In this document: piece after piece, positions 2,774 to 33,949 of the stretch | How positions within the stretch are numbered: position 1 is the stretch's first letter | Layout: every line of letters begins with the position of its first letter | Source of the DNA: Escherichia phage AV125 | DNA length: 64,000 nucleotides | Sequence record: OR352955.1 | Direction: 5' to 3' (one strand) | Made by a program: the position numbers and the translations under genes | The notes under the pieces: generated by a model | What the model was told of the DNA's origin: nothing | Database searches by the model: none | The model's input: only the letters and a program-made list of their open reading frames with translations

Positions 2774-3021
2774 GATCTTCCTCCTGTGCGGAAAGCGCGT
2801 TTAGTAATGTTGGACATAATGATTAAATCTTGTAAAGTCATATCTGGGAACTGTTGTTCTAAAACTCCCTCAACAGCCCCTATAATATCTGATAATTCCA
2901 CAAGTTGCATTATTTTGCAATCCTGTTCAACAGCATCAAAAAGTTCTTCTACTTCCTCTTTAATCTTTTCTATGCTGCCATAAGGTTGTTTCTTAATGTC
3001 TGTTATGTGATACCCCGCCAT
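2770..3021 (-). CDS. MazG-like nucleoside triphosphate pyrophosphohydrolase (small)
   Basis: 83 aa; acidic EExxE-type helix IEKIKEEVEELFDAVEQD typical of MazG/dimeric dUTPase-like house-cleaning enzymes. Confidence 0.55.
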   Translation of the reverse strand: MAGYHITDIKKQPYGSIEKIKEEVEELFDAVEQDCKIMQLVELSDIIGAVEGVLEQQFPDMTLQDLIIMSNITKRAFRTGGRS

Positions 3022-4614
3022 TTAACGATCCTCTCTGATTTGATTAATCTTACGAGCAAGGGCAGCTATAAGCTTATCTTCTTCAGATACAGGAGCCGTG
3101 CTCTTACCTAAACGATGCATGTCTAAAATCTCTTGAACAGTCCGGTTCCATTGCAGACATTTAATACAACGTGTATGTGCAACATACAGAAGATTTCGTT
3201 CTGATTCTTCAAGACCTACCCACTCACCCTTCTTATCATAATTAGAAGGGAAGTCATTTGCAACAATAACCTGATCCCATTCCAAACCTTTTGATTTGTG
3301 GGCTGTAGTTAAAGTAACTTTAGCCGTTGGAGAGTTACGGTGCATACGTAAAGTGTATGCAATATTATTAGCTTTACCAGAAACAACAATGTTTAAAAGT
3401 CGTTTTGCATCAGGATCTGATTCTGCACACTCTACAAATTCTTCCCAAGAAGTGTAAGGTAGAACTGTCTCATGCTTAACTTTGTCCAAATCACCTCTAC
3501 GTAAAGCATTAACACTATCAACCATAGAAATGAAATCTTTGGTATCTACGTTAATAATAATCTCTTCTCCGTTAGCGATTCGATCCATAGCTTCGAGCAA
3601 CAGGGTCAAATTCTTACGGAAAATAATGGTGTAAGGTTTACTATAATCTACCACATCAGAATGAAAACTTCCAGTGACAGTATCATAACCTTTGCCTACC
3701 AGCGGATGCTTCAGAGGTGAGCGATCAGAAAGGATCGCATTAGCAATGTCCGCAACTTTAGGACCAAAGCGAAAACAAGCTGTCAGAGGCAACTCAACTC
3801 CATATGTAGCCGTTTGCTTCATCATGTTCTGGCTTCCACGGAACTGATAAATACTCTGAAATTCATCACCCACAACAACAATACGTTTAGCCGATTTAGC
3901 ATTGCGAAGGATAGACAGGAATGCAGGGTTAACATCCTGGAATTCATCTCCAAAAATAATATCGTATCCTAAATCTTCTTTACTCAATTCGAAGAGTTTC
4001 ACATAGGTGTCATGAGTCATAATGGTTTCTGATTTAGGATCAATACGCTCACGCCAAAGTTGCTTCGCATATTTAACAACTTCGTTAATAAGTTTTTGTT
4101 CGTTGATGTTCTTACGTTTAAGATCTGACATATGCACTTTAGGAAAATGTTTATGTCCAATATGTTCATCGTCAGAAAACTCATATTTAGCTAAAGTTTG
4201 TTTTACCATTAACCCGATCATTGCACGAGTCAGTAGCACTTTACCATTCTTATCAATCAAGTTCTGAATCTTGAATTTTTTGGCAATCTCACTACCAGTT
4301 CCAGCTACGTTAACATATTGACCTTCTGGACGAGACAATTTGTGTCGAAGGTTTTGTGGAAGACGCTGGTAACAGATTGAATGTAGCGTTCGGCACATAA
4401 CATTAGGCGGCATTTTACGTCGAGCTTCCTCTGCCATACTTTTGTTAAACGCCAAGTATAGAATACTATCATTTGTGCCATTAGCCAACATATACAGTGT
4501 TGACGTTTTACCTGATCCAGATTTAGCTTGAATTGTAACGAAACGATTTTCTTGATACCCACTTTCAATAGCGTATTGTTCGTCGGTAGGTGTAAAACTC
4601 AATTGTGTAGACAC
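3022..4614 (-). CDS. UvrD-like superfamily 1 DNA helicase
   Basis: 530 aa; Walker A AKSGSGKTS near N-terminus after TDEQ; Walker B DEFQD; C-terminal TAHKSKGLEWDQV motif. Confidence 0.75.
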   Translation of the reverse strand: MSTQLSFTPTDEQYAIESGYQENRFVTIQAKSGSGKTSTLYMLANGTNDSILYLAFNKSMAEEARRKMPPNVMCRTLHSICYQRLPQNLRHKLSRPEGQYVNVAGTGSEIAKKFKIQNLIDKNGKVLLTRAMIGLMVKQTLAKYEFSDDEHIGHKHFPKVHMSDLKRKNINEQKLINEVVKYAKQLWRERIDPKSETIMTHDTYVKLFELSKEDLGYDIIFGDEFQDVNPAFLSILRNAKSAKRIVVVGDEFQSIYQFRGSQNMMKQTATYGVELPLTACFRFGPKVADIANAILSDRSPLKHPLVGKGYDTVTGSFHSDVVDYSKPYTIIFRKNLTLLLEAMDRIANGEEIIINVDTKDFISMVDSVNALRRGDLDKVKHETVLPYTSWEEFVECAESDPDAKRLLNIVVSGKANNIAYTLRMHRNSPTAKVTLTTAHKSKGLEWDQVIVANDFPSNYDKKGEWVGLEESERNLLYVAHTRCIKCLQWNRTVQEILDMHRLGKSTAPVSEEDKLIAALARKINQIREDR

Positions 4615-4628
4615 GTATTTCTCCTCTC

Positions 4629-5144
4629 TTAATAAAAACTCTTGACAATCCTCATCATTTCCTTAGCTCTGCTGGCGTAAGGTTCTTTTAGATTAGGTGG
4701 CAAATGTGCATTAATGTATCCCATTTGTTTTTCCCATGTCCACTTATCTTTAAATCTTGGCATGGTGTCTCCTGCTAAACTGTTTTCTTTTCGTGTTTGA
4801 ATAATCCAATTACATGGAAAATGCACACCACCTTTACGGAAGGGAATATAATGTCCCAATGTGAATGCCTTATTGTTCTTTAAACGTCCAGCTAAATTAA
4901 GATTAACAATAAGACTACGAAACACGTAGTATTGATAAAGATTGTCAACAGTATATACAGAGTAGTATGCTCTAAGTGCATTATCTCGACTAAGATTACC
5001 AACATCCAAACTGCACCAGTTTAAATTACTTGGATCGTAGTTGTGATTATCAATCCATTCTTCTCTTTCCTCAAATTCTGCATTAACAGCAGACTGCCCT
5101 GCTGTAGATACAAAAAGAGAATTTGCATCAAAGAACATACTCAC
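4629..5144 (-). CDS. hypothetical protein (171 aa)
   Basis: ORF track; compact spacing to neighbours. Confidence 0.55.
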   Translation of the reverse strand: MSMFFDANSLFVSTAGQSAVNAEFEEREEWIDNHNYDPSNLNWCSLDVGNLSRDNALRAYYSVYTVDNLYQYYVFRSLIVNLNLAGRLKNNKAFTLGHYIPFRKGGVHFPCNWIIQTRKENSLAGDTMPRFKDKWTWEKQMGYINAHLPPNLKEPYASRAKEMMRIVKSFY

Positions 5145-5151
5145 TCCCCCT

Positions 5152-5505
5152 TTAGTTTACATCGTTTAGAGCATTACCAATCTTTAAGATAATAACGTCG
5201 TTAAGAGCTTCTTCTCCATTAAGGCCAGAGAAAGCAGGAGTAACGAAAGTTACCATATAATAATGGTCTTCTTGTAGGATTGCGATAACGCCGTCTAGTT
5301 TAACATCTCCTGTGAAACGAAAAACTTTCAACTTTTGTTCTAAAGGAAGATCTCCTTCGACATTTAAAACCATATCTCCGACACCAAACTTTTCTGCCCC
5401 GATGTAGATGTAAGTTTGGTCCTCTTTTTTATGGTAATACAATGTTGCTTGTTTGTCTTGTAGTGTTGTGATACCAAACACATCTACATCAATAATATTT
5501 TTCAA
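5152..5505 (-). CDS. hypothetical protein (117 aa, TTG start)
   Basis: Track ORF 5152..5562 shortened to TTG at 5505 preceded by GGAGGAG; start overlaps upstream TGA stop. Confidence 0.45.
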   Translation of the reverse strand: MKNIIDVDVFGITTLQDKQATLYYHKKEDQTYIYIGAEKFGVGDMVLNVEGDLPLEQKLKVFRFTGDVKLDGVIAILQEDHYYMVTFVTPAFSGLNGEEALNDVIILKIGNALNDVN

Positions 5506-25837: not shown

Positions 25838-26128
25838 ATGAAAAAGATGATCGCAGTAGTTGCCCTGGTTGTTGGTATTAACGCGCCTGTACTGGCTAAT
25901 GAGTTGCCAGAATCCATCACGCTAACCGATATCAACGCAATAAACCGGATCGGCGTTAATTATCGCCTATGCCTTGCCGCTAAAACTTTCCAGGACGGCA
26001 CGACAGAATACCACGGATTCGAGGGTATCCGCTGCGGTGAGCTTGCACGCGACCTTAAGGAAGATCCAGACCTTGAGGCCATACCGATGACCGTAAACGG
26101 TAAAGCTTACGTAAACCGCCAACAATGA
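25838..26128 (+). CDS. predicted secreted protein (96 aa)
   Basis: Signal-peptide-like MKKMIAVVALVVGINAPVLA. Confidence 0.55.
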   Translation: MKKMIAVVALVVGINAPVLANELPESITLTDINAINRIGVNYRLCLAAKTFQDGTTEYHGFEGIRCGELARDLKEDPDLEAIPMTVNGKAYVNRQQ

Positions 26129-26259
26129 GAAAGGTAATCATCACAATGGGGATCATAGTAGCGACACTGGCGCTTATCCCCTTCATGGTTGAATATGTGC
26201 TGATCAGTGTTGTCCTGGTAGTCAGTGACCTATTGGAAACGGTTGGCAACTGGTTTTAA
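26125..26259 (+). CDS. tiny membrane peptide (44 aa)
   Basis: Own translation MRKVIITMGIIVATLALIPFMVEYVLISVVLVVSDLLETVGNWF; ATGA overlap. Confidence 0.35.
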   Translation: MRKVIITMGIIVATLALIPFMVEYVLISVVLVVSDLLETVGNWF

Positions 26260-26436
26260 AAATAAGAAAAACAGGACTTGTTTTTGTTCTGTTTTTTGTT
26301 ATACTTATTGAACGGGCGGCACCTGGAAGCAGGGGAAGATAATCACCGGAAGACCCCGCTATATATTGATAACTAACGCCTATCAAACAACAAAACATCA
26401 AAGGAATAAACTATCAAATCTTTACAATTCTACCTA

Positions 26437-26480
26437 TTGACACCGGATCACGCTTACACTATTATTTATCACGTAGGGCA
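26437..26480 (+). promoter_or_regulatory. early promoter with conserved leader start but no stem-loop (cassette 21)
   Basis: TTGACA 26437; TATTAT 26460; TATCACGTAGGGC leader. Confidence 0.5.
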
Positions 26481-26511
26481 AACAATTTTAAACGGTAAAC
26501 GAGGAATCACC

Positions 26512-26895
26512 ATGAGCAATATCATCAACCTGGCAGCGACTGTAAACGGTAAAGACTTTAACGGCGCTGTAGACCGTGATCCTATGTGGTGCTTGTCAGT
26601 GTTTAAAGGCGATCTGGTTGAAGTTAGAACAACCGAAGGTTATAGCGATGATTATAAATGCGAGATTCATTTACATAATTGGTACACGGGTAAAACTTAT
26701 GCGCTGAATCACGCGTTTATCGGGAAAATTGAATATCGCGAGATGATCGACGATGAAACGGGGCAAGATTTTAGCGAAAACGTTTATATTCGTTCCGAGA
26801 CATTAGCCGAACGTTTGATCGAGAAAATGAAAGCAAAAAATAAAATTAATTTATCTCATTGGATTGATATAACAAATGATCCGGCTTATCAGTAA
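26512..26895 (+). CDS. hypothetical protein (127 aa)
   Basis: Start moved to ATG 26512 after GAGGAA; track start 26437 is the TTG of the -35 box. Confidence 0.55.
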   Translation: MSNIINLAATVNGKDFNGAVDRDPMWCLSVFKGDLVEVRTTEGYSDDYKCEIHLHNWYTGKTYALNHAFIGKIEYREMIDDETGQDFSENVYIRSETLAERLIEKMKAKNKINLSHWIDITNDPAYQ

Positions 26896-26911
26896 ATAAC
26901 ATTTCATACCA

Positions 26912-26937
26912 GGGCGCATCAAGCGCCCTTTCTTTTT
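26912..26937 (+). terminator. intrinsic terminator (copy 2 of repeated terminator)
   Basis: GGGCGC-atcaa-GCGCCC then TTTCTTTTT, identical to 22001-22026. Confidence 0.65.
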
Positions 26938-26999
26938 GCCCGAATAATGTTGATAGCTTTCGCCTATGAAAAACCGACACAGAACAAAACTGAATAAAT

Positions 27000-27420
27000 C
27001 ACGGTATCGAGCTAATCGACCATTAAACGAATAACCATACATCCCAGGGCAACAGGCTGTTAGAGAGCTATTTAGAGCGGTTAAAATCGATCAACAACCA
27101 ACAACAAACCATCAAAAACACCCTTTTACCTCTTTTCTAGTGCAATGATAACCATTATCATCTATCATTGATTATCTATTCAATATAAGTGCATAACTAT
27201 AATGTTGATAATAGTTCGCAACAACTAACCAACAAACAACATAAAACAATAAGCAAACTAATCATAATCAAAGGAATAATAGCAAGATGACTGATAACGA
27301 CAAACAATCAAACCATGATGAATATTAAACAAGATAACGATAACACGACAAAACAACCAACTAACGAACAATAACAAACGAAACCATTAAAAGATCAACT
27401 ATTAGCAAAATAGTGTATAT
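27000..27420. other. noncoding A/C-rich tract, strongly G- and T-depleted on plus strand
   Basis: Long runs such as aaccaacaaacaacataaaacaataagcaaactaatcataatc; no ORF on either strand. Confidence 0.6.
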
Positions 27421-27505
27421 TGCCATAATAGTGACTGAATGAAATCATTACAAAACGAATCATTCCAAGGATCATCATTAGCACGCTACGCCGGACACGT
27501 AGCGA

Positions 27506-27633
27506 GCTAATAATAAGCCAACTACACCCCAACAATCATAACCATCGGTGATGGTTATTTCTTGTTACTGCGTAGCTTGCAATAATTGCAAGCGTAATGA
27601 CGCTTACACTTATTGCGCTGGCTTATTATTAGC
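27506..27633. repeat. 128-bp element bounded by perfect 15-bp inverted repeats, with nested palindromes
   Basis: GCTAATAATAAGCCA (27506-27520) vs TGGCTTATTATTAGC (27619-27633); inside: ATAACCATC-ggt-GATGGTTAT (27538-27558), TTGCAAT-a-ATTGCAA (27577-27591), AAGCGT-aatg-ACGCTT. Confidence 0.6.
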
Positions 27634-28091
27634 ATTATATGTAATTACTAAGATCATAACATTAGCGCAATAACAATAATCATTGTAATAGTTACAAGAT
27701 GAGATCATTAGCAAGATGAATAATTGCACGTAGCAACATGAGCGAATAGCGACAGGTTGCATAGTGTGCACATAGTGTATAAACATACAAGAAAATAAAG
27801 GCTAATCTTTTGGGGGCGAATACTATCGCTACGCGATATGTTGAGCACCTTCTCTTAAACGTAAATAAAATCAGAATAATCTTGATTTATTTTAGTTTTT
27901 ATGTTAATAAACGTTTAAATAATAATCATTCTCATATAAATAATAGTCTGCTTGTCATGAGCGGGATCAGTTGACAATGTTCCGTCATATGATGAAGTTG
28001 CCAAACCATTGATAAATAAGTGTTTGTGTGATTTATAATCAAGTGGCCCACCTTGTCGCTACGTTGGTATGAGCCTTGCATAAGTCATTGA

Positions 28092-28120
28092 ATACGAATG
28101 ATAATTATTCTCATTCGTAT
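28092..28120. promoter_or_regulatory. operator-like inverted repeat sharing the ATGAGAA/TTCTCAT half-site
   Basis: ATACGAATGA-taattattc-TCATTCGTAT; related AATCATTCTCAT at 27924-27935. Confidence 0.45.
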
Positions 28121-28456
28121 GATATTTGGGAATTGTCGCTGCGTGGACCTGACGGCCCGAAAATTCGCGTTAAGCACTTCTTACGTATGCGCCATGATTT
28201 TTGCCATATGATATTGATTCTATTAGATATTCTTGCCATGATTGCCATGAAACAGGGTGTCCCGAAATAATCTCTCCCCGTAGATATTTTGGGTTACTTT
28301 TTATACAAGAGTGGGGTGTCAAAAATAATCGGTATATATAGGATAATTGATAGGAATCCCCTATGATAATTCGATTGTAATTCCCTAAGATTGATCGTAT
28401 GATGTTGGTGATTGATGATTGCCATGAAAGATGGCTAACGATGAGAGGAGATTGTC

Positions 28457-28801
28457 ATGCAAGAGAGTAAAAATGTTCCGTTGAGTAGTTTACGTCTAAT
28501 GAAGTTTTACAAAGCTTGGCTTGCTGGTGAGGTAGAAGGTCACACAACGAGTGGTTTGTGCATATGTTTGATTAAGTATGTAGAGGGAACATACCCTGAT
28601 GAACTGTTACCTCGTCTACAACAAGAGATGAAATCACAGTTTATTGGTGCAGGATTGGATTACAATTTCCCGTTTAATGAAGGTGGTTATGAGGAATACA
28701 CCTTTGAACATAAAAAACATATTTGCCATAAAAACAAACATCGTATACAATGGGTGCTAGATAGAATTCAAGATTATGAAGGAGAGAAAGATGACAAATA
28801 G
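28457..28801 (+). CDS. paralog family A member 1 (114 aa)
   Basis: FYKAWL..GLC..L....EM..QF..AGLDYNFPFN...RIQWV.DRI family signature. Confidence 0.6.
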   Translation: MQESKNVPLSSLRLMKFYKAWLAGEVEGHTTSGLCICLIKYVEGTYPDELLPRLQQEMKSQFIGAGLDYNFPFNEGGYEEYTFEHKKHICHKNKHRIQWVLDRIQDYEGEKDDK

Positions 28802-29159
28802 TATTCCGTTGAGCAGTGCAACATTGCTTCGCTTCTATAAAGCATGGATTGCCAACTATCCTGCAATGAATCGCACAACGAGTGGCTTATGTGGTTGTCT
28901 GGTAGACTATGTAGATGATTTTGTTGGTGATACACCTAGAGAAGAAGATAGAAAATGGCGTGATCATTTGTTGGACCGTTTGAAATATGAAATGAGGAAA
29001 CAATTTACATGTGCAGGACTGGACTACAATCTTCCGTTCAATGCAGATTGCATGGATTACCTTTCAGAGTGTATAAACTTGGCGTGTCATACCAACACGT
29101 TACGTCTTCAGTGGGTGAAAGATCGGATTGAAGATGCAAATAATGCTTGCATTGAATAA
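28791..29159 (+). CDS. paralog family A member 2 (122 aa)
   Basis: Start ATG 28791 after AAGGAGAG; FYKAWI..GLCGCL..EMRKQF..AGLDYNLPFN..RLQWVKDRI. Confidence 0.6.
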   Translation: MTNSIPLSSATLLRFYKAWIANYPAMNRTTSGLCGCLVDYVDDFVGDTPREEDRKWRDHLLDRLKYEMRKQFTCAGLDYNLPFNADCMDYLSECINLACHTNTLRLQWVKDRIEDANNACIE

Positions 29160-29208: not shown

Positions 29209-29418
29209 ATGAAGAATTTGAAAACTGTCACAATGTTCTTGACTGATCCTACACGTGTGCAAGCACTGGCTAAAGCCAGCCGTGTAGCTGTAGAATTCCA
29301 AAACTTTAAGCCGTCCGTTGTGACAGGCAGTGAAACGTGTGTTATCGATTTCATTAACGAATACTTCCGAGGGAATCCGGTTGGTCGTTACTTTATTAAG
29401 GGTCTGAAGGATGCATAA
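29209..29418 (+). CDS. hypothetical protein (69 aa)
   Basis: ORF track; GAGGAG upstream. Confidence 0.5.
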   Translation: MKNLKTVTMFLTDPTRVQALAKASRVAVEFQNFKPSVVTGSETCVIDFINEYFRGNPVGRYFIKGLKDA

Positions 29419-29641
29419 CATGAAACGCATGAAAATTCGTATTGAGAATGATGGTGGTTATAAAGGATTGGCACATGCAAAATTTCCACTTGTGTTGGAA
29501 GCTACTGTGGAATACAGTGGGCTTGCTCATGTGCGATTCTCGAAGATGATGGAAGTGCAGGAATGGTTTTGGGACGAGATAGATGCACGAGAAGGGGAAG
29601 ATTATGTTTTCTTTCCTCACGAATATGAAATTGTCTATTAA
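29411..29641 (+). CDS. hypothetical protein (76 aa)
   Basis: ORF track. Confidence 0.5.
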   Translation: MHNMKRMKIRIENDGGYKGLAHAKFPLVLEATVEYSGLAHVRFSKMMEVQEWFWDEIDAREGEDYVFFPHEYEIVY

Positions 29642-29653
29642 GGGTTGTGTGCA

Positions 29654-29893
29654 ATGATCACACCACAACAGAATGAAGCAGCAATGGATCTTCTCGATAG
29701 TTTGTATTTCGATAACTGGTACTCTGAATGTGAATGGATGAATATGCAAACTCTGAAAGAGAAGACAGAAGCGTTGATTACAGTAGATCAATTTCTTGCA
29801 GAGACGGAAAGAATGAATTATGATATGGCATCTCGCGCACGACGCGTTTCCATTTTCAATAAAATGTTAGCATTATGGGGAGGTAGAAAATGA
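29654..29893 (+). CDS. hypothetical protein (79 aa)
   Basis: Track ORF 29645 (TTG) shortened to ATG 29654. Confidence 0.45.
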   Translation: MITPQQNEAAMDLLDSLYFDNWYSECEWMNMQTLKEKTEALITVDQFLAETERMNYDMASRARRVSIFNKMLALWGGRK

Positions 29894-30351
29894 GACAACC
29901 ATCTATACTGGAAGCGCATGTGCAATGTGTTGTAGATTATGTCAAAGAACACTCAAGTTTATTAAATGTAACCTGTGCAGTGCAAAATGATGTAGGCATT
30001 GTCTGTGTGCAACATATCTTATCTGAAACTCGTTATGAAGTATTTCGTGCCACGTTGTTTGGATGTGATCGAGTGCATGTAAACTTCCTGGACTCCAATT
30101 ATCGTTATGCTTTAGAAAATATTGATGATTATCTTCCTTGCTCTCCGACAGGATATGTAATGGTAACAGCAAACGAAGTAACACCAAGCAACAGTGAACG
30201 GGAAGCTTTGTTACGGAAGAAAATACGCCAACTGAAAATGCTGATGGAAATGCAAGAAGAGATTGAAAAAGAACTGAAAGAAGATTTTGGTATGCTTCCA
30301 AAAGACGCTTTGAAATGGTATGATGAACTAGGAGGAGAGAGCAATGTTTAA
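29890..30351 (+). CDS. hypothetical protein (153 aa)
   Basis: ATGA overlap; GGAGGTAG upstream. Confidence 0.55.
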   Translation: MRQPSILEAHVQCVVDYVKEHSSLLNVTCAVQNDVGIVCVQHILSETRYEVFRATLFGCDRVHVNFLDSNYRYALENIDDYLPCSPTGYVMVTANEVTPSNSEREALLRKKIRQLKMLMEMQEEIEKELKEDFGMLPKDALKWYDELGGESNV

Positions 30352-30802
30352 AGAAGGTCATGTCTACCGTTTCCAGGATGAGGATTATATGCGACTATAT
30401 TCTACCTTTGATAACAGTATTGCGGCTATCATTGGAGAGAATTTTTTCGAGGTGTTGAGCACTGATGCAAATGGTAATATCTTGTCAATGGTTGTAATAG
30501 GTATGAGAGATGGTATTATCACTGCTGGTGATGGGGATCGTTACATAATCAATTCTGCTCATATAGATTATTTTGTTGACGGTGGTGTTCGTGGTGGTCG
30601 TGGAAAACCCCAAGAAGAACCTGTTGATACAACAAAAGAAGAGTGGTATGTTGTAATGACTGATGACACCTGTATTTCTGGATTTGAAAGTTATGAAGAA
30701 GCTTTGAAAGAAGCAGCAGAGCATAAAATGGCTAATCCTACAGAAGAGGTTGAAGTTTATAAACGTATGGTTGTTGCTACCATCGGTGTATCTTTTGTTT
30801 AA
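30344..30802 (+). CDS. paralog family B member 1 (152 aa)
   Basis: N-terminus MFKEGHVYRF; family MFK.G.VY.F...E...F; C-terminal EVYKRMVVATIGVSF. Confidence 0.55.
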   Translation: MFKEGHVYRFQDEDYMRLYSTFDNSIAAIIGENFFEVLSTDANGNILSMVVIGMRDGIITAGDGDRYIINSAHIDYFVDGGVRGGRGKPQEEPVDTTKEEWYVVMTDDTCISGFESYEEALKEAAEHKMANPTEEVEVYKRMVVATIGVSFV

Positions 30803-30814
30803 AAGGGGAATGTT

Positions 30815-31600
30815 ATGTTTAAAGTAGGTTTTGTTTATAATTTCAAATCGGAAGATACCAAAAAGAATTTTGGTAAAGCTAGTATTGGTAACGCTTTCTT
30901 TGTAGGTTGCATTCAAGATAGCAAGTTTAAAGTTTTGGATGTTGATTTTCTTGGTTCTGTATCTAAGGTGAAGGTATTAGACACAAATAAAATCATCGAA
31001 GCTGGTTCTGGGCTTTTCCCTGAAGGTTATAAGCTTGTAAGTTGTATGGATTATACTCGTTTTGAAGAACATACTCCTGAAGATTATGAAGATTCTCCTA
31101 CAGGAGGCTGTGTCTTTGTAGAAGGTGGTGTCTATAAGTTTGCAAGTGAACAAGATCGTAAGCTTTTCGCCAATTATATTGACGGCGGACAAACGACAAA
31201 CAATGTAAACCGAAAAATTTCCGATCTTATTGGCGATGATCCTTTCGTGATCACAAAGATGGTTGGACAAGATGTAACAGCAATCCGTAGGCTTGTATGT
31301 AATACAAATCATGTAGCAGGTGAAGGCTGGTTCAAGGAAGCTTGTGCGCTGCTAATCAAAAGCGATAACCCTTATTTTAAAAATATTAAAGATGTTGTTG
31401 AGCCTAAACAAGAGGAATCCGCAGCGAATTTTAAACACTATGCTATTGTTAAAGGTATGAATGTCCAACTGGTGTCACATTCTTACGAAGAGATCGCCAC
31501 AGAAGCAAAAAAGATGAAAGAAGAATACCCAATTTCTACTGTTGAGATCTATGAGCGTATTGGTGTTGTTAGTATTGAGCCTACTGCGGTAATAAAATAA
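30815..31600 (+). CDS. paralog family B member 2 (261 aa)
   Basis: MFKVGFVYNFKSED; C-terminal EIYERIGVVSIEPT resembles member 1. Confidence 0.6.
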   Translation: MFKVGFVYNFKSEDTKKNFGKASIGNAFFVGCIQDSKFKVLDVDFLGSVSKVKVLDTNKIIEAGSGLFPEGYKLVSCMDYTRFEEHTPEDYEDSPTGGCVFVEGGVYKFASEQDRKLFANYIDGGQTTNNVNRKISDLIGDDPFVITKMVGQDVTAIRRLVCNTNHVAGEGWFKEACALLIKSDNPYFKNIKDVVEPKQEESAANFKHYAIVKGMNVQLVSHSYEEIATEAKKMKEEYPISTVEIYERIGVVSIEPTAVIK

Positions 31601-31609
31601 GGAGCTATT

Positions 31610-32047
31610 ATGTTCAAAGCTAATGCTGTTTACTGTTTCAAAAGCAAAGCTGCATGTGAAGCTTTCTCTACAATCTCTGATGAAAATTTCAAAATGGCAG
31701 CTTTGATTGAAGGGTCTTGTTTCCGCGTCGAAGATGTTAGTGAATCAGGATCTGTTTGCTCGTTGACTTTATTGGACAGCGGAGATATTATTGAAGCTGG
31801 ACAGTATCCGTTCAGAAGTTGGGAGATATTGTTAGCTCGTGGAGAGCGTAACTTTTTTATGTGCGTGTCTGCGGGGGAAGTTGTGAAAGAAACTAAGGAT
31901 GTTTCTGTTTACAATTCTGAATTTATAAGTTATAGTGAGTATCAACATCTGGAAGGCATTGTTGGTCACTTGTTATCTCTGATTGACATTGAATGTGACT
32001 TGCCTGAATCATTGAAAGAAGAGTTGAAAGCATTAGATCTGCTGTAA
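31610..32047 (+). CDS. paralog family B member 3 (145 aa)
   Basis: MFKANAVYCFKSKA. Confidence 0.55.
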   Translation: MFKANAVYCFKSKAACEAFSTISDENFKMAALIEGSCFRVEDVSESGSVCSLTLLDSGDIIEAGQYPFRSWEILLARGERNFFMCVSAGEVVKETKDVSVYNSEFISYSEYQHLEGIVGHLLSLIDIECDLPESLKEELKALDLL

Positions 32048-32074: not shown

Positions 32075-32374
32075 ATGAATCTGACCGAACAGTTACGCCG
32101 TATTGCAAAAGAAGCTTCCTTCAACTTCCCTGTTGAAGAAGTGATCGAGACATGTTTTGCTGAAGCACGAGCGGGAAACTCTTCAAGAAATTTCACGCCA
32201 TCTGATTTTGGTCTGGATAATTCCCCTACCCACCCAGGGGAGATCTACAATCAGGTGAAGTGGATGGATGAAGCAGTAGCAATTCTTCGTGAGCGTGGGC
32301 TTATTGTTTATAAAGAAATGGATCTGAACGGGGCATACGAGTGGATCACTATTGATTGGTCGGAGGTGAAATAA
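32075..32374 (+). CDS. hypothetical protein (99 aa)
   Basis: AAAGGAGAA upstream. Confidence 0.55.
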   Translation: MNLTEQLRRIAKEASFNFPVEEVIETCFAEARAGNSSRNFTPSDFGLDNSPTHPGEIYNQVKWMDEAVAILRERGLIVYKEMDLNGAYEWITIDWSEVK

Positions 32375-33017: not shown

Positions 33018-33332
33018 ATGTCAGAAGAACTTAAAGAATTTTATCAAGCCTATCATAATTGGCTGTTAGCTGGTGCTCCAGATAATAATCCTTTCTGGCA
33101 CGATAAAGGTTTGTGCAGTTGCCTCTATCTTTGGTCTGGTGGTTATGATGACCTAAATTATGAAATGCAAATGCAATTTCGAGAAGCAGGATTGTCTGAA
33201 GAATACCCGTTTGATGACGGAGACTGGTTTAAATATGATTTTGCACAAAGAAACGGGCTATTGCATTTGAATGCTGCCCGTATAAGATGGGTAAAAGATC
33301 ATGCTACACAGGAGGATGTGCAATGCCAATAG
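33018..33332 (+). CDS. paralog family A member 3 (104 aa)
   Basis: FYQAYHNWLLAGAPDNNPF..GLCSCL..EMQMQF..AGL..PF....RIRWVKDH. Confidence 0.6.
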   Translation: MSEELKEFYQAYHNWLLAGAPDNNPFWHDKGLCSCLYLWSGGYDDLNYEMQMQFREAGLSEEYPFDDGDWFKYDFAQRNGLLHLNAARIRWVKDHATQEDVQCQ

Positions 33333-33727: not shown

Positions 33728-33949
33728 ATGAAAATTAGAGTTTGTGATGTATTGGGTTATGTTGGTTTTGAGAATGTTCAGATTCCTTTTGTTGTTGAAG
33801 CACATCTTGTTAGTGAGGATATGACAACATTCTTTGTTACGATAGAAGAAATGTCCAAAGTTGAGGGATGGGAGTGGTTTGAAGAAGATGTTTGGGAAGG
33901 TTGTGATTACGTATTCTTCTCTGATGAAGTGAATGTTCTTTCGGAGTAG
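33728..33949 (+). CDS. hypothetical protein (73 aa)
   Basis: ORF track; AAGGAG upstream. Confidence 0.5.
   Translation: MKIRVCDVLGYVGFENVQIPFVVEAHLVSEDMTTFFVTIEEMSKVEGWEWFEEDVWEGCDYVFFSDEVNVLSE

Follow-up and report, generated by a model that had tools for sequence, protein, structure and literature searches.

A probable GoF-family gene array in the left region of Escherichia phage AV125 and its rearrangement in related phages

Since the 1970s the goF gene of phage T4 has puzzled geneticists. With mutations in goF, T4 can grow on certain hosts that are mutant in rho. D25Y and G84R are mutants that permit growth on restrictive rho alleles, and GoF D25Y prolongs the half-life of mRNA carrying the gene 41 leader, an assay in which wild type GoF and MotB.1 have slight effects only. 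The GoF protein is made early, reaches about 20,000 copies per cell and can be dispensed with in the laboratory. The family to which it belongs was described only in 2025, and for T4-like phages alone. According to Kim et al. 2025 (PMC12152347), the N-terminal part of GoF is a five-stranded barrel, termed LSm-like, whose closest solved folds are FeoA, SloR and IdeR, and a flexible linker runs between this barrel and C-terminal domains of various structure. Here we describe three adjacent genes, A, B and C, in a stretch of 64,000 nucleotides (nt) of Escherichia phage AV125 (record OR352955.1; the whole stretch is hereafter called the window), which very probably form an array of the same family (T4 goF / frd.2 / motB.1) evolving by recombination. 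The locus extends the family to a second subfamily of large coliphages, and what is new here is the tandem organisation outside Tevenvirinae, barrel doubling at least twice, module exchange and mapped recombination joints. We found no literature on these genes in Stephanstirmvirinae, and Kim et al. 2025 was the sole coverage of the family.

The three genes and their N-terminal domains

The first-pass annotation of the window had listed three adjacent open reading frames (ORFs) of 152, 261 and 145 amino acids (aa) which share an N-terminal motif. All three are found on the + strand where it had placed them, gene A at 30344-30802 (152 aa), gene B at 30815-31600 (261 aa) and gene C at 31610-32047 (145 aa). 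They are tightly packed, with gaps of 12 nt between A and B and 9 nt between B and C, and each is preceded by a ribosome-binding site on the + strand, namely AGGAGG at 30330-30335 for A, AGGGGA at 30804-30809 for B and AAGGAG at 31599-31604 for C, the last of which overlaps the stop codon of B. The shared motif was borne out, and the similarity, which could have ended at the tenth residue, reaches far beyond it. BLASTP matches cover the first 64-67 residues, with 33% identity between A and B (expectation value, E, 2e-5), 42% between B and C (E 2e-10) and 31% between A and C (E 1e-5), and the wider family profile extends the shared unit to a domain of about 86 residues (the N-domain) ending in a conserved Y/F-F-x-E-V. 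A hidden Markov model (HMM) of the N-domain, run over all six frames of the window, detected exactly four copies, two of them inside B, and no further copy better than E 0.4. These copies, all on the + strand, correspond to residues 1-80 of A (30344-30583), residues 1-86 of B (N1; 30815-31072; independent E 1.6e-30 with the family profile), residues 100-191 of B (N2; 31112-31387; independent E 1.1e-26) and residues 1-86 of C (31610-31867).

The whole of A aligns to residues 100-254 of B in BLASTP, and B therefore holds a second N-domain followed by a C-domain common to A. The insertion of about 110 aa which the first-pass annotation had assigned to the middle copy is actually this second N-domain, 28% identical to the first, and the layout of B is N-domain, linker, N-domain, linker, C-domain. 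In A the N-domain is followed by a disordered Gly/Arg/acidic linker (residues 81-99) and then by the C-domain (residues 100-152; 30641-30799, + strand), modelled as strand-strand-helix-strand; the C-domain of B comprises residues 207-261 (31433-31597, + strand). The EVY(K/E)R motif noticed earlier in A and B is real, and lies within this homologous domain of about 55 aa. The C-terminal module of C (residues 87-145; 31868-32044, + strand) differs from the A/B C-domain and is probably helical, with low-confidence helices in its AlphaFold2 model, and it is homologous to a stand-alone protein of 70 aa, Psg_142 of phage PsgM04F (E 2e-10), which is encoded at 4909-5121, two genes downstream of that phage's array. 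Since the module of C has a stand-alone homolog and differs from the A/B C-domain, the barrel has thus been combined with different partner modules. The N-terminal third of Psg_142 weakly resembles the last barrel strands, and it may be a truncated C-type gene. Three candidate copies of the A/B C-domain, namely the 64-aa ORF of related phages, the C-terminal domain of GoF and the C-terminal part of C, were rejected, as the C-domain HMM found none of them at sequence level. Both the distinct module of C and the membership in the T4 GoF family go beyond the first-pass annotation.

The four N-domains are mutually 22-35% identical, their distance to T4 GoF is about the same, and at the DNA level the copies have no repeat of more than 41 nt in common. 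This makes the duplications old, and a recent duplication was rejected on the same two grounds. By these comparisons the three ORFs are old and diverged tandem paralogs derived from local duplication; of the local tandem duplication and divergence first proposed, the paralogy stands, but the duplications are ancient. A-like and B-like copies are already adjacent in the divergent phiWec186/PsgM04F lineage. A neighbour-joining tree of the N-domains was too poorly resolved to order the duplications, and nearest-neighbour relations alone were used, in which A goes with PsgM04F Psg_139, N2 of B with Psg_140, and the two barrels of ORF049 of phage Phi1 with each other.

How B came to hold two barrels is indicated by the DNA at their junction. 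At 31102-31114 (+ strand) lies a putative relic of a gene start, AGGAGG-CTGT-GTC, in which AGGAGG stands 4 nt before a GTC codon (Val100) that aligns with the ATG of the paralogs. AGGAGG occurs 20 times on the + strand of the same-strand block of 36 kilobases (kb), 14 of them before a gene start, and the chance of its occurring at exactly the homologous start of N2 was estimated at about 0.003. With regard to relatives, N2 is closest to PsgM04F gp140 (32%) and phi92 gp003 (31%) and N1 is closest to C; in MAFFT alignments, even with anchor rows, single-barrel homologs were split across N1 and N2. Given the relic Shine-Dalgarno sequence at the start of N2 and the low identity of the two barrels, B is therefore best read as a fusion, most likely an in-frame fusion of two adjacent and already diverged paralogs.

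The relationship to GoF was seen in several comparisons. T4 GoF (taken from NC_000866) matched B from residue 2 onwards in BLASTP, with 33% identity over 51 residues (E 9e-8), and matched C at E 5e-4. With hhalign, a query profile made from Stephanstirmvirinae N-domains alone aligned to a profile of T4-like GoF proteins over 85 columns (probability 97.4%, E 1.3e-11). The T4 protein MotB.1, which had been left out of the family profile, was detected at E 6.8e-5, and Frd.2, which had been included in it, was also detected. Two PHROG families annotated 'goF mRNA metabolism modulator' match B (E 1.3e-6 and 4.1e-6), the stronger placement of the proteins in PHROGs being in families of unknown function, and the same name has already been given to these genes in two GenBank records. 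Pfam and NCBIfam gave no match to the three proteins, and because the domain is absent from both, most members are still labelled 'hypothetical'. A sequence search of the PDB gave nothing usable; flagellin appeared as a single match with no stretch over threshold. The FeoA profile (Pfam PF04023) gave no sequence match.

A first word-indexed protein search with B as sole query returned two proteins only. When 1.84 billion representative proteins were searched exhaustively with HMMER, 104 clusters were obtained at E<=1e-3, all of them short (37-354 aa), about 19 of which carry two or three domain stretches. Ten clusters were looked up, and all came from phage-sized contigs or from named T4-like phages. 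Two proteins of 354 aa each, P0150 and P0170, are apparent three-barrel GoF-like proteins, and therefore barrel stacking exceeds two; the longest Logan contig of both is 71,282 nt, probably the same contig.

The N-domain is predicted to be an SH3-like small beta-barrel with FeoA and IdeR as nearest solved folds, as published for GoF. AlphaFold2 models were made for A and C, and both show a small barrel, in which strand 1 is followed by two short helices, and then a disordered linker. For A the mean predicted local distance difference test score (pLDDT) was 77.6, being >90 for residues 1-50, <50 for residues 85-96 and 66-85 in the C-domain; for C it was 75.0, with >90 for residues 1-60, 82-91 for residues 61-90 and <50 for residues 93-129. 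Linkers with pLDDT <50 (residues 85-96 of A and 93-124 of C) and two unrelated C-terminal modules among three genes reproduce the layout of the GoF family, in which a flexible linker leads to a variable C-terminal domain. Foldseek against predicted viral structures gave 54 hits at E<=1e-3, and of those outside Phapecoctavirus, almost every hit with a name is an uncharacterised protein of a T4-like phage of enterobacteria or Aeromonas, with a given phage often contributing two.

Array arrangements and recombination joints in related phages

Copy number in related phages, which the first-pass annotation had pointed to as informative, turned out to vary widely. We read the arrays of 15 Phapecoctavirus genomes, the window included, between two conserved flanking genes. 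The left boundary is a 153-aa gene (29890-30351, + strand), an ortholog of phi92 gp001, whose end is overlapped by 8 nt by the start of A, and the right boundary is a 99-aa gene (32075-32374, + strand). The flanking genes are fixed, and between them we observed nine different arrangements. The order A, B, C of the window is shared by Schickermooser, ev052 and ECML-183-2. ESCO37 and ECO340P1 carry the 64-aa ORF and a further copy, D, in front of A, B and C; tuntematon has the 64-aa ORF, D, A and C; WPEC4 has D, A and C; ukendt has the 64-aa ORF, B and C; and Ro121c4YLVW has A and C. In phAPEC8 an A-B chimera precedes C, in nepoznato C is preceded by a remnant made of the last 28 codons of A (2501-2584), and in PNJ1809-36 an inversion at 1846-2485 disrupts both the 64-aa ORF, in its 3' part, and A, in its 5' part. 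C was kept in all 15 genomes. When tblastn was extended to the whole phage collection, A was found at >90% identity in 57 records and C was covered at >=80% in 61, and only 16 records had B at >=80% identity.

The crossovers map to ribosome-binding-site/ATGTTTAAAG gene starts and to linkers. The crossover of ukendt falls within ATGTTTAAAGTAGG, which is common to the starts of D and B, and in the window, which lacks the 64-aa ORF and D, it lies in the ribosome-binding-site/ATG region. In the chimera of phAPEC8, the barrel of A is joined to the C-domain of B within CAAGAAGAACC of the linkers. The joints are thus of two kinds, the ribosome-binding site with the ATGTTYAAAG gene start, and linkers of PQEEP type. 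As crossovers fall at gene starts, the shared MFK... start therefore doubles as the DNA microhomology at which copies are lost or joined. Through recombination at short conserved sequences, copies are gained, lost and fused among related phages, and since A, B and D are naturally lost in relatives, these copies are dispensable. A metagenomic protein of 141 aa, P0136 (ENA contig of 1301 nt), joins an upstream ORF of the 76-aa type to the C-terminal half of B at an EGWF/QEWF microhomology (compare 29411-29641 and 31330-31597 of the window); it may represent a genuine deletion variant, or else an artefact of assembly.

Genomic setting

Escherichia phage vB_EcoM_Schickermooser has 98% identity to this region, and about 80 further records are similar. 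The related records examined belong to Phapecoctavirus, phAPEC8-like myoviruses in Stephanstirmvirinae with genomes of about 150 kb. Counted from the left end of Schickermooser, the three genes stand in seventh to ninth place (2.5-4.2 kb), and phi92 has a single homolog, gp003, at 1341-1793, about 1 kb past its left terminal repeat of 343 base pairs. Judging by its position, this leftmost block of small, tightly packed same-strand genes is presumably the early region; a scan for promoters and terminators gave no more than shuffled sequence did, and no usable signal. On the window, coding density is low at about 26000-28400, and the left physical end of Schickermooser's genome falls at about 27840, so that the window apparently extends across the genome terminus or the terminal-repeat region. 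No tRNA genes were detected in any part of the window.

Small paralogs of a second family lie at 28457-28801, 28776-29159 and 33018-33332 (114, 127 and 104 aa), on either side of the GoF-like array with about 4 kb between the two parts, and share 47%, 36% and 30% identity in BLASTP (E 3e-32 to 8e-10). A third set of paralogs is the pair at 29411-29641 (76 aa) and 33728-33949 (73 aa), with 37% identity (E 3e-12). For the most part, the putative early region on the left consists of dispersed families of small genes.

Possible function and comparison with known systems

The explanation which we favour overall, and which has somewhat better than even chances, is that A, B and C are tandem early genes of the GoF family which recombine and modulate mRNA fate. 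Each is a protein in three parts, an N-terminal SH3-like barrel, a short, disordered and mostly acidic linker and a variable C-terminal module (in B the barrel is doubled), and all three are probably abundant, non-essential early proteins. By analogy with the genetics of T4 GoF, they may adjust the post-transcriptional fate of phage or host mRNA, and the barrel would do so by binding a host RNA-handling protein such as Rho, the RNase E degradosome or RNA polymerase, rather than by binding RNA. Binding to a host protein is favoured over RNA binding because A and C are strongly acidic, with net charges of -15 and -13 and barrels of isoelectric point (pI) 4.3 and 4.6. This specific role, a post-transcriptional modulator which acts via a host RNA-handling protein, is a tentative proposal whose chances we put well short of even, and several points weigh against it. 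B is near neutral, among family members that are otherwise acidic in all cases examined, and its N1 has a pI of 7.7, so that the argument from acidity fails for some copies. Pull-downs by Kim et al. brought down mainly GoF itself and provided no functional insight (PMC12152347). The effect on RNA in T4 is tied to a gain-of-function mutant, and the residues D25 and G84, at which the T4 mutants are altered, are not conserved in the alignment of A, B and C.

Among the alternatives, the one that survives best, though we consider it unlikely, is that these genes are interchangeable counter-defence or host-range cassettes, each paralog neutralising a different strain-specific host factor and copy number recording an arms race. 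The nine arrangements in 15 closely related genomes with fixed flanks would fit such a role, as would the frequency of chimeras and fusions, the independent tandem expansion and domain doubling in Krischvirus Phi1, and the encoding of acidic, presumed early proteins in the leftmost region, which presumably enters the cell first. However, the orthologs do not evolve in the expected manner. The ratio of non-synonymous to synonymous polymorphism (pN/pS) between orthologs was 0.07-0.18 for B and 0-0.26 for C, and for A it was mostly <0.5, a value resting on few differences; such low ratios imply purifying, not diversifying, selection on the genes. Moreover, C is present in 15/15 genomes examined, and no similarity to any known anti-defence protein was seen. 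A related and equally speculative possibility, to which we give perhaps one chance in several, is that the array works as a recombination-driven cassette system, in which gene starts and linkers serve as joints to swap, stack or drop barrels and modules. Different barrels would then be adapted to different host targets, either in RNA metabolism or in defence, and the GoF family, if this is true, would serve large virulent myoviruses as a general and modular toolkit for host takeover instead of being a single mRNA modulator.

It is less likely still that these proteins bind RNA directly, as Hfq/LSm-like RNA chaperones or RNA-binding proteins whose barrel protects or remodels phage or host transcripts. 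Like the N-domain, Hfq and the Sm (LSm) proteins form small barrels with five antiparallel strands, and for GoF this comparison has been proposed in the literature; the proteins do not conform to the Sm fold, which is marked by a helix at the N-terminus, by Sm1 and Sm2 motifs and by assembly into ring oligomers, and the acidity of A and C speaks for a protein partner as argued above. Finally, that the similarity is due to chance or composition, or that the ORFs are non-coding or decaying remnants, can be dismissed as most improbable, since the uniform annotation as 'hypothetical protein', the lack of Pfam and NCBIfam matches and the truncated or inverted copies in some relatives (nepoznato, PNJ1809-36) are outweighed by pairwise E values of 1e-5 to 2e-10, HMM scores far over the six-frame background of the window, pN/pS well below 1, a confidently modelled N-domain and 104 related clusters among 1.84 billion proteins.

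The reshuffling of the locus between near-identical phages has provided useful material. Near-isogenic natural variants carry from one to four of these genes, fusions included, and a direct comparison between them could reveal the function.

Compared with GoF (ComC-alpha), Frd.2 and MotB.1 of T4, the proteins described here have the same homologous barrel of about 86 aa, running from F/W-x-V-G-x-x-Y-x-F-K to Y/F-F-x-E-V, and the same succession of barrel, acidic flexible linker and variable C-terminal module. In both cases they are small acidic proteins encoded among small early-type genes, with several paralogs per genome, and the nearest solved folds are the SH3-like domains of FeoA and IdeR. 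Other folds with which they may be compared are FeoA and the SH3-like domains of IdeR/MntR/SloR, and more broadly the small barrels of Tudor, KOW and EF-P domain I. The differences lie first in the phage lineage, which is Stephanstirmvirinae here and Tevenvirinae for the T4 family. The copies are directly adjacent in our locus, whereas in T4 cef and motB stand between goF and motB.1, and frd.2 is about 140 kb off. Unlike goF and its two T4 paralogs, one gene here (B) has two barrels, the C-terminal modules have no sequence relation to the C-terminal domain of GoF, and D25 and G84 of GoF have no conserved counterparts in A, B or C.

The closest parallel in organisation is found in the Krischvirus (RB49-like) Phi1, which also has tandem GoF-like genes, four in number (ORF048-ORF051), one of them (ORF049, 274 aa) being two-barrelled. 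This array is at 2983-5294 (ORF051 to ORF048), between nrdG and nrdH, and thus at a different genomic site, and the C-terminal parts of its proteins gave no match to the A/B C-domain HMM. The two barrels of ORF049 are mutual closest relatives with 46% identity, whereas identity between those of B is 28%, with N2 grouping beside phi92 gp003 and PsgM04F gp140. As the barrels of ORF049 are nearest to each other, the doubling of the barrel in Krischvirus was probably a separate event from that which gave rise to B.
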